Under the pieces are notes generated by a model. It worked only from the letters and a program-made list of their open reading frames with translations, was not told the DNA's origin and searched no databases. 64,000 bases of DNA from Candidatus Freyarchaeum deiterrae (GTDB taxonomy: Archaea; Asgardarchaeota; Jordiarchaeia; Jordiarchaeales; Jordiarchaeaceae). This document shows, piece by piece, positions 43,562-43,842 of the stretch (position 1 is its first letter; every line of letters begins with the position of its first letter). The stretch is from NCBI GenBank assembly GCA_037305845.1, contig CP147778.1, positions 1,504,001 to 1,568,000 of the forward strand, written 5' to 3'. The position numbers were made by a program, and so were the translations under genes.

Positions 43562-43647
43562 ATCCAATTAGTTGTAAAAACAAAAGATTTAATAGGTTGA
43601 ATAAAAAACTTAATTTCTGCCGTCGTCCGAAATCTCCCAGAATAGGT

Positions 43648-43842
43648 GCCGTCGTAACTATTCACCAAGAAGAATAGCGACAAGCTTAGCCCGGGAGAGC
43701 GCCGGATACTGCCATAAGCATTGCAGAAGGCGAAACTGAAGATCCGGCTGTCGCTGGATCCTGCCAGAACCATTGACAGGAGGCGAATTCAAAGGGAATA
43801 GTGTTTGAAACACTATTCCTGAAACTCCGGCCGACGGCACCA
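43648..43842 (+). tRNA. tRNA-Phe(GAA), four non-canonical introns (9/10 at 43657-43683; 30/31 at 43706-43734; 53/54 at 43758-43787; 59/60 at 43794-43825)
   Basis: Acceptor GCCGTCG/CGACGGC+A+CCA. BHB helices GTCG/CGAC, CGCC/GGCG, CGCT/GGCG, TTCA/TGAA. Spliced CCGGA-CT-GAA-GA-TCCGG. Confidence 0.88.

Follow-up and report, generated by a model that had tools for sequence, protein, structure and literature searches.

The splice motifs of archaeal tRNA introns are thought to require just the exon and intron sequence around the cut. Non-canonical and multiple BHB introns have been described in Thermoproteales, including an acceptor-stem intron at position 3/4 (PMC4090602), and the tRNA introns of Freyarchaeia and Atabeyarchaeia are covered in PMC11291895, whose supplement lists an 8/9 intron in tRNA-Thr(CGT). 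A census of Asgard archaea (bioRxiv 10.64898/2026.10.13.758758) groups acceptor-stem and junction introns as 'other'; the word 'leader' is absent from this preprint. Among split and permuted tRNAs, complementary leaders have been described (PMC3218864, PMC4033280); these flanks form the helix on the intron side and are removed by EndA. A published description of a leader that replaces an acceptor strand was not found in the literature searched, which covered few subscription journals. The tRNA-Phe(GAA) gene analysed here carries a candidate for such a leader, and sequence comparison and folding models indicate that it probably acts as a cis-acting folding helper for splicing.

The genome of Candidatus Freyarchaeum deiterrae (Freyarchaeia, SRVP) is a single contig of 3,576,204 bp that was published as complete (PMC11291895). 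The window analysed here is a 64,000-nucleotide stretch of this contig, and its tRNA-Phe gene went undetected by both ARAGORN and Rfam. A parser that excises BHB-bounded introns and then scores the cloverleaf was therefore written for this analysis; it assigns some downstream introns and anticodons wrongly, with gene ends and leaders unaffected. The parser places tRNA-Phe(GAA) on the plus strand at 43648-43842, with four introns at 9/10, 30/31, 53/54 and 59/60 (Table 1). The predicted spliced product of 77 nt has all stems and invariant bases, and obtains the top parser score in the genome.

Table 1. Features of the tRNA-Phe(GAA) and tRNA-Thr(CGT) loci, numbered by position in the window.
Feature	Position	Strand	Remarks
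tRNA-Thr(CGT), with 8/9 intron at 41401-41376	41248..41409	-	parser; intron also in PMC11291895 supplement
tRNA-Thr(CGT) leader strand	41413..41424	-	pairs with 66-72, T73 and CCA with one bulge
Distal BRE/TATA-like promoter (predicted)	43582..43595	+	PWM score 10.5 here, 11.2 in four relatives; 13/14 bases invariant
Proximal BRE/TATA-like site	43603..43616	+	PWM score 10.5 here, at most 2.6 in four relatives
Candidate stand-in (decoy) acceptor strand	43618..43626	+	GCCGTCG at 43619-43625 pairs 7/7 with tRNA 66-72; invariant in five genomes
CCG extension	43627..43629	+	pairs with T-stem C62-G64 beyond one T.C mismatch; partly conserved
TCTCCCAG, complementary to D-loop segment GGGAGA (43693-43698)	43633..43640	+	minimum-energy fold; TCTCCC invariant in five genomes
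TAGGT, pairs with GCTTA of exon 2 (43684-43688)	43643..43647	+	AGGT invariant in five genomes
tRNA-Phe exon 1 (nt 1-9)	43648..43656	+	parser
tRNA-Phe intron 1 at 9/10, 27 nt	43657..43683	+	central helix GTCG(4-7)/CGAC; kept in four relatives
tRNA-Phe exon 2 (D arm to nt 30)	43684..43705	+	
tRNA-Phe intron 2 at 30/31, 29 nt	43706..43734	+	central helix CGCC/GGCG
tRNA-Phe exon 3 (anticodon GAA to nt 53)	43735..43757	+	
tRNA-Phe intron 3 at 53/54, 30 nt	43758..43787	+	central helix CGCT/GGCG
tRNA-Phe exon 4, TTCAAA (nt 54-59)	43788..43793	+	
tRNA-Phe intron 4 at 59/60, 32 nt	43794..43825	+	missing in four relatives
tRNA-Phe exon 5 (T-stem 3' strand, 3' acceptor strand at 43832-43838, A73, encoded CCA)	43826..43842	+	

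Like archaeal BHB introns, the 9/10 intron has a 4-bp central helix, two bulges (TA|A and AA|G), each with its predicted cut behind the second base, and an inner helix of 6 bp (CTATTC/GAATAG); the flanking helix on the outer side is supplied only via the leader, across an internal loop. GTCG pairs with CGAC, and because this central helix takes acceptor nucleotides 4-7 it excludes the acceptor stem, as the first-pass annotation of this DNA had claimed. In one relative (G004) the central helix reads GTCG/CGAT. For intron 4 the outer helix is the T-stem, which would be usable only once intron 3 is out, so that the two are probably removed in this order. In the four relatives (L002-L005) the 30/31 intron differs little or not at all from the 53/54 intron, which suggests copying or conversion inside one gene; in the present genome the two have diverged from each other. 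The 59/60 intron occurs in Phe only in this genome, where the neighbouring Val-GAC (43486-43561) is intron-free; Val-GAC of three relatives has a T-loop intron, and together these introns point to recent gains or losses.

The genome encodes two PF01974 EndA-family genes of 213 and 205 aa, a pair that would fit a two-subunit enzyme, the type said to cut non-canonical introns (PMC5829648). An RNase P RNA gene is likewise encoded (1698618), after tRNA-Val(TAC), and one of the EndA-family genes (L279, G000:C1:1921033-1921793) lies directly upstream of a four-intron tRNA-His gene.

Upstream of G1 (43648), TGCCGTCGTCCG occupies 43618-43629. It contains a repeat of tRNA-Phe nucleotides 1-7, with a spacing of 29 nt between the two copies; the base pairing of this upstream repeat with the 3' acceptor strand can be lengthened by T43618 with A73. 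When the 40 nt before G1 are scored for duplex formation with nucleotides 66-76, the Phe leader reaches -14.9 kcal/mol (shuffle p 0.015). The second copy of the 5' acceptor strand, and its ability to pair with the 3' acceptor strand, had already been noticed on first reading and stand. Copy, TCTCCC and AGGT are invariant in four same-genus genomes, in which the spacer varies by no more than 5 nt and the sequence downstream of CCA is different; in the draft genome G002 no Phe orthologue was found. In the minimum-energy fold, TAGGT:GCTTA is the outer helix, with which the 9/10 site takes the form of a bulge-helix-loop motif, and the leader and exon 2 pairings fold as one long hairpin around this site. 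On these models, TCTCCCAG is a second helper element beyond the copy; the first-pass annotation had mentioned no leader pairing with exon 2.

Three other architectures were considered and rejected. If the copy were the true exon 1 of a nested or acceptor-stem intron, both helix strands would be one non-palindromic 4-mer; moreover, three relatives have a C, instead of U8, right behind the copy, and many copies differ from the tRNA strand. A split, trans-spliced tRNA is ruled out, as the five exons are contiguous in 195 nt behind one promoter region, and a circularly permuted tRNA by the normal exon order and by the upstream piece, which copies the 5' strand.

The position of the copy relative to putative promoters was assessed with a PWM built from 181 control tRNA upstream regions. 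In control genes the TATA core lies a median of 39 nt before G1 (10th percentile 32), and the lower edge of these distances, near 30-32 nt, likely marks the start site. Leader copies in most genes begin 28-33 nt past the best TATA core, which is this lower edge. The distal Phe promoter sits 29-30 nt before the copy and would direct transcription to start at about 43617-43620, at the copy itself. The proximal site, if used, is predicted to give a start near 43640 and a transcript devoid of the copy. It is very improbable that, in this genome, the copy is left untranscribed through use of the proximal promoter, or acts as DNA. In favour of this reading, the proximal site scores equal to the distal one and stands at the usual 38 nt from G1, a spacing shared with Atabeyarchaeia-like Phe genes that have no 9/10 intron; it is possibly the older promoter. 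The proximal site is nevertheless degenerate in all four relatives, where its TTAATTT is replaced by TTGTTTT and where distal site and copy are kept. Furthermore, the copy sits at the predicted start across lineages, and the G.U-compatible changes described below indicate pairing as RNA.

Folding of the Phe precursor with and without its leader, a check suggested by the first-pass annotation, yields a clear switch in the model. With a leader that starts at 43619, the 9/10 helix has a probability of 1.00 and the true acceptor stem of 0.00; when the leader is removed, starts at 43635 or has its first nine bases replaced, the 9/10 helix drops to 0.00-0.01 and the true stem rises to about 0.9. If just the seven copy bases are replaced, the helix stays at 0.30, so that the exon 2 pairings contribute to it as well; mutation of TCTCCCAG lowers its probability from 1.00 to 0.73. 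In five Phe genes folded at 37 C, the probability of the 9/10 helix is 0.87-1.00 if the leader is present and no more than 0.01 if it is absent, and the genes of the four relatives fold in the same way at 20, 37 and 55 C. Among 54 genes modelled with their leader, the true acceptor stem is near zero in 52, and the exact four-pair helix increases in 29 and decreases in none; in the remaining 25 this literal register fails to rise, often through a slipped or mismatched helix. In many tRNA-Asn 8/9 introns (L172, L193, L199, L227, L230, L234, L239, L247) the central helix contains a C.A mismatch (CGCC/GACG), and for these the model favours a continuous hairpin in a shifted register.

These models also bear on the idea that the splice motif forms regardless and that the copy serves as a tether for ligation, holding the first exon onto the rest of the tRNA from cleavage until ligation, in the manner of the complementary flanks of split tRNAs. 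First exons of just 8-10 nt, which lose their intron partner upon cutting, would suit such a role, as would copy duplexes of -13.7 to -26.4 kcal/mol. Tethering is nonetheless quite improbable as the explanation: almost no splice helix forms without the copy in the model, a freed exon 1 could pair with 66-72 by itself, and short internal exons such as TTCAAA are managed without tethers.

The first-pass annotation had inferred that the leader frees the true 5' exon for the 9/10 helix and the 5' T-stem strand for the 53/54 helix. The first part is supported by co-occurrence, by the copy's tracking of the 3' strand, by its position and by folding, whereas the T-stem part is weak. The 53/54 helix of Phe does rise with the leader (from 0.22 to 0.84), but it rises equally in the Phe gene of G004, where CCG:CGG forms at 0.01, and thus a role of CCG:CGG is not needed. 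Introns of the 53/54 type also exist in this genome without any leader copy. The proposed pairing with CGG of the T-stem across one mismatch forms here, with pair probabilities of 0.91-0.97; in the relatives two pairs range from 0.01 to 0.93 and the third is missing in all four. As a general feature the T-stem extension is ruled out, since at least three of its four pairs are available in 10 of 51 distinct copies.

The genome contains two further genes with an early intron, i.e. at 8/9-10/11, and all three have a leader strand, compared with none of the 44 other genes (-8.4 kcal/mol or weaker). The same arrangement in tRNA-Thr(CGT), and the lack of a separate duplicate in the twelve other leaders of the window, had both been claimed before and are confirmed: the Thr-CGT duplex of an 8/9-intron gene reaches -18.3 kcal/mol, and the twelve window tRNAs without an early intron remain at -7.7 kcal/mol or weaker. 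In Thr-CGT, 15 leader bases are identical across six genomes, and the spacer upstream of them diverges. The third gene, tRNA-iMet, was the highest-scoring 'control' (-17.6 kcal/mol) and was then found to hide a 10/11 intron, whose splice helix takes nucleotides 5-8. The iMet orthologue in G002 has kept both the 10/11 intron and the leader strand, and five iMet genes of a sister family have neither. Genes of the same isotype that have no early intron likewise have no copy, as seen for iMet (family f2), Phe (L008, L194) and Thr-GGT (this genome).

Two iMet genes, L157 (G000:C1:1729284-1729446) and L163, have one intron at 10/11 and another at 15/16. The helix of the 15/16 intron extends across the first splice junction; in the minimum-energy fold, the 3' strand of this helix is bound by the leader as well, a pairing that could enforce a splicing order. 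Altogether, 47 tRNA genes were recovered in the genome compared with 38 published (PMC11291895), with tRNA coordinates that agree with the published ones. Phe, iMet, His, Glu-TTC, Ala-GGC, Pro-TGG, Leu-CAG, Ser-GCT and Ser-CGA are missing from the published 38-row table, and the parser reads the published entries 1545739 (Met) and 1326639 (Ser) as Glu-CTC and Cys, respectively.

A survey across Archaea employed patterns that place the intron end directly before the D arm, ignore the leader and cover one D-arm class. In Asgard archaea, early introns were found in Thr-GGT and Arg-TCG (f2), Tyr (f20), Tyr (f9) and Lys-CTT (f18). The GTDB pattern search added genes from Bathyarchaeia (Asn, Thr-CGT, Tyr), Hadarchaeota (Asn), Nitrososphaerota/Conexivisphaerales (Asn) and Aenigmarchaeota (Asn, Phe). 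A threshold of -13.5 kcal/mol, picked on the first set and unchanged for the later ones, is passed by 53/54 early-intron genes of that set and by 1/180 controls, by all 17 metagenome genes (Lys, Tyr) and by all 20 held-out genes. This gives a leader strand in 90 of 91 archaeal early-intron genes, of which many are orthologues and hence not independent, forming about 15 isotype-lineage groups with tRNA-Asn dominant. The co-occurrence of leader duplicates with such introns in related genomes, which the first-pass annotation had suggested looking for, is thereby borne out. The sole control under the threshold, L121 (Asn, G021), is bulged, has a p of 0.06 and no early intron. L379 was left out of the held-out set as a mis-parse, its 'intron' holding the D arm.

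An orthologue that has the intron and lacks the duplicate had been named beforehand as contrary evidence, and one exception of this type exists against the 90 concordant genes. Lys-CTT of G033 has a clean 9/10 BHB, which does not form in the folding model, and no copy; seven of its leader bases are complementary to the D arm. In this gene (L129:1138-1295, G033:C5) the trinucleotide just ahead of G1 pairs with G73-C75, like copies elsewhere, and the intron opens with a degenerate GGG..TA repeat; speculatively, a former copy may have turned into the real first exon. A search for the published Thermoproteales 3/4 intron in 151 genomes, from the class to which a Pyrodictium genome belongs, gave chance matches only. 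In L047 (Arg-TCG of G006) the 3' bulge of the early intron seems one base short for a standard cut, reflecting an unusual motif or an assembly error. L186, on a Bacteroidetes MAG contig, consists of seven tandem units of 364-365 bp, each with a tRNA-like sequence that has A at position 8.

Whether the copy resembles the true 5' strand or complements the 3' strand can be distinguished where the two differ. At positions where a G.U pair joins the true 5' strand to the 3' strand, the copy carries the Watson-Crick partner instead (L198, L241, L235, L313), and the remaining differences are C-to-T changes opposite G (L054, L199, L230, L214). Copies also run at least two pairs onto N73/C74 in 16 of 32 distinct cases, compared with 6/32 for the true strand and 58/180 in controls, and three pairs onto N73-C75 in 9/32. 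Since the copy tracks the 3' strand and not the true 5' strand, this covariation argues for selection on RNA pairing with the 3' end, of which it is the strongest sign.

The same comparison makes it highly improbable that the copy is a neutral scar, left when intron insertion near the 5' end duplicated the first bases of the gene. Such an origin would account for the almost tandem arrangement of copy and true strand in Thr-CGT and several Lys genes, and G033 Lys-CTT shows that a 9/10 intron is possible without a copy. However, copies are a closer match to the 3' strand than the true 5' strand is, add NCC pairs that the true strand lacks, and are invariant while spacers and 3' flanks diverge. 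The copy may have originated by duplication; the pattern nevertheless needs selection.

A role in splicing as a folding helper, the preferred reading, would proceed as follows. Transcription would begin at, or just before, the copy, which would pair with the 3' acceptor strand and leave the real nucleotides 4-7 free to pair with the intron. In the modelled switch, this pairing builds the helix required by the splicing endonuclease EndA, and in Phe the remaining leader would pair with exon 2 to give the outer helix. EndA would then cut and a ligase would join exons 1 and 2, after which the real 5' strand could displace the copy by branch migration and RNase P would take off the leader. After removal of all introns, the copy-bound state is still favoured by 4.6 kcal/mol in Phe and by a median of 5.1 kcal/mol over 38 genes (3.75 with the leader trimmed to the copy's first base), in a model that leaves out tertiary structure, modifications, enzymes and the irreversible RNase P cut. 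Release of the copy may be settled by tertiary folding, modifications and this irreversible cut. According to PMC3978253, RNase P recognises the acceptor stem together with the T arm, and therefore it might conceivably cut the false stem first.

The persistence of the copy-bound state beyond splicing would also fit a leader that mainly masks the 3' acceptor strand and CCA from RNase P, tRNase Z, the CCA enzyme and the synthetase until the first intron is out. The frequent reach of the copy onto N73-C75 agrees with such a lock on processing, as does the need of the Thr-CGT and Phe intron motifs for leader bases, which an early RNase P cut would destroy. On the other hand, most of the 180 controls have introns but no such leader, the feature follows only introns whose helix overlaps nucleotides 1-7, and several copies lack the extension, with Phe having one extra pair only. 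As the main function, masking is unlikely; it is compatible with the folding-helper reading.

It is possible, though short of probable, that an obligatory two-state pre-tRNA arose repeatedly in archaea of several phyla, in which a leader strand at the start site builds a false acceptor stem, enables 8/9-10/11 splicing, masks the CCA end and is freed once splicing is complete and not before, perhaps when RNase P makes a first cut on the false stem. If true, this would be an undescribed RNA-only step that orders tRNA maturation and limits the sites of intron gain. An acceptor-adjacent intron seems to persist almost only with a replacement strand supplied by the leader, and thus splicing likely has a second requirement outside the gene, which bears on how and where archaeal tRNA introns are gained. 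The leader strand is also a practical marker for essential tRNA genes that annotators overlook, as exemplified by Phe and iMet in this published genome.

The Phe introns resemble known archaeal BHB introns in being short and protein-spliced, with a 4-bp exon/intron helix, 3-nt bulges and several introns per gene; unlike here, a leader replacing an acceptor strand is nowhere described in PMC4090602, PMC11291895 or the Asgard census, as searched. In the split and tri-split tRNAs of Nanoarchaeum equitans, Caldivirga, Aeropyrum and Staphylothermus (PMC3218864, PMC4033280), a flank outside the tRNA likewise pairs so that a BHB can form. There, leader and trailer pair in trans, and the leader builds the helix on the intron side and is removed by EndA, whereas the Phe leader belongs to a single transcript, would pair with an exon far from the cut in substitution for a tRNA strand, and must come off at the 5' end after splicing. 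The permuted tRNAs of Thermofilum pendens and Cyanidioschyzon merolae (PMC3218864, PMC3978253) share the long distance between promoter and gene with tRNA-like sequence in between; the Phe gene differs in its normal exon order, in an upstream piece that duplicates the 5' strand and not the 3' half, and in that no BHB can be drawn that joins the copy into the mature tRNA. Competing strands also operate in RNA switches such as attenuators, riboswitch anti-terminators and the guide pairings of group I introns. As in these conformational switches, a spare strand would sequester one partner in favour of an alternative helix, but no ligand or regulation is evident and the Phe switch would serve an obligatory step of tRNA maturation. 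The tRNA-Phe gene is a member of the BHB-intron class, with a leader that would act like the flanks of split tRNAs yet does not make it a split tRNA.
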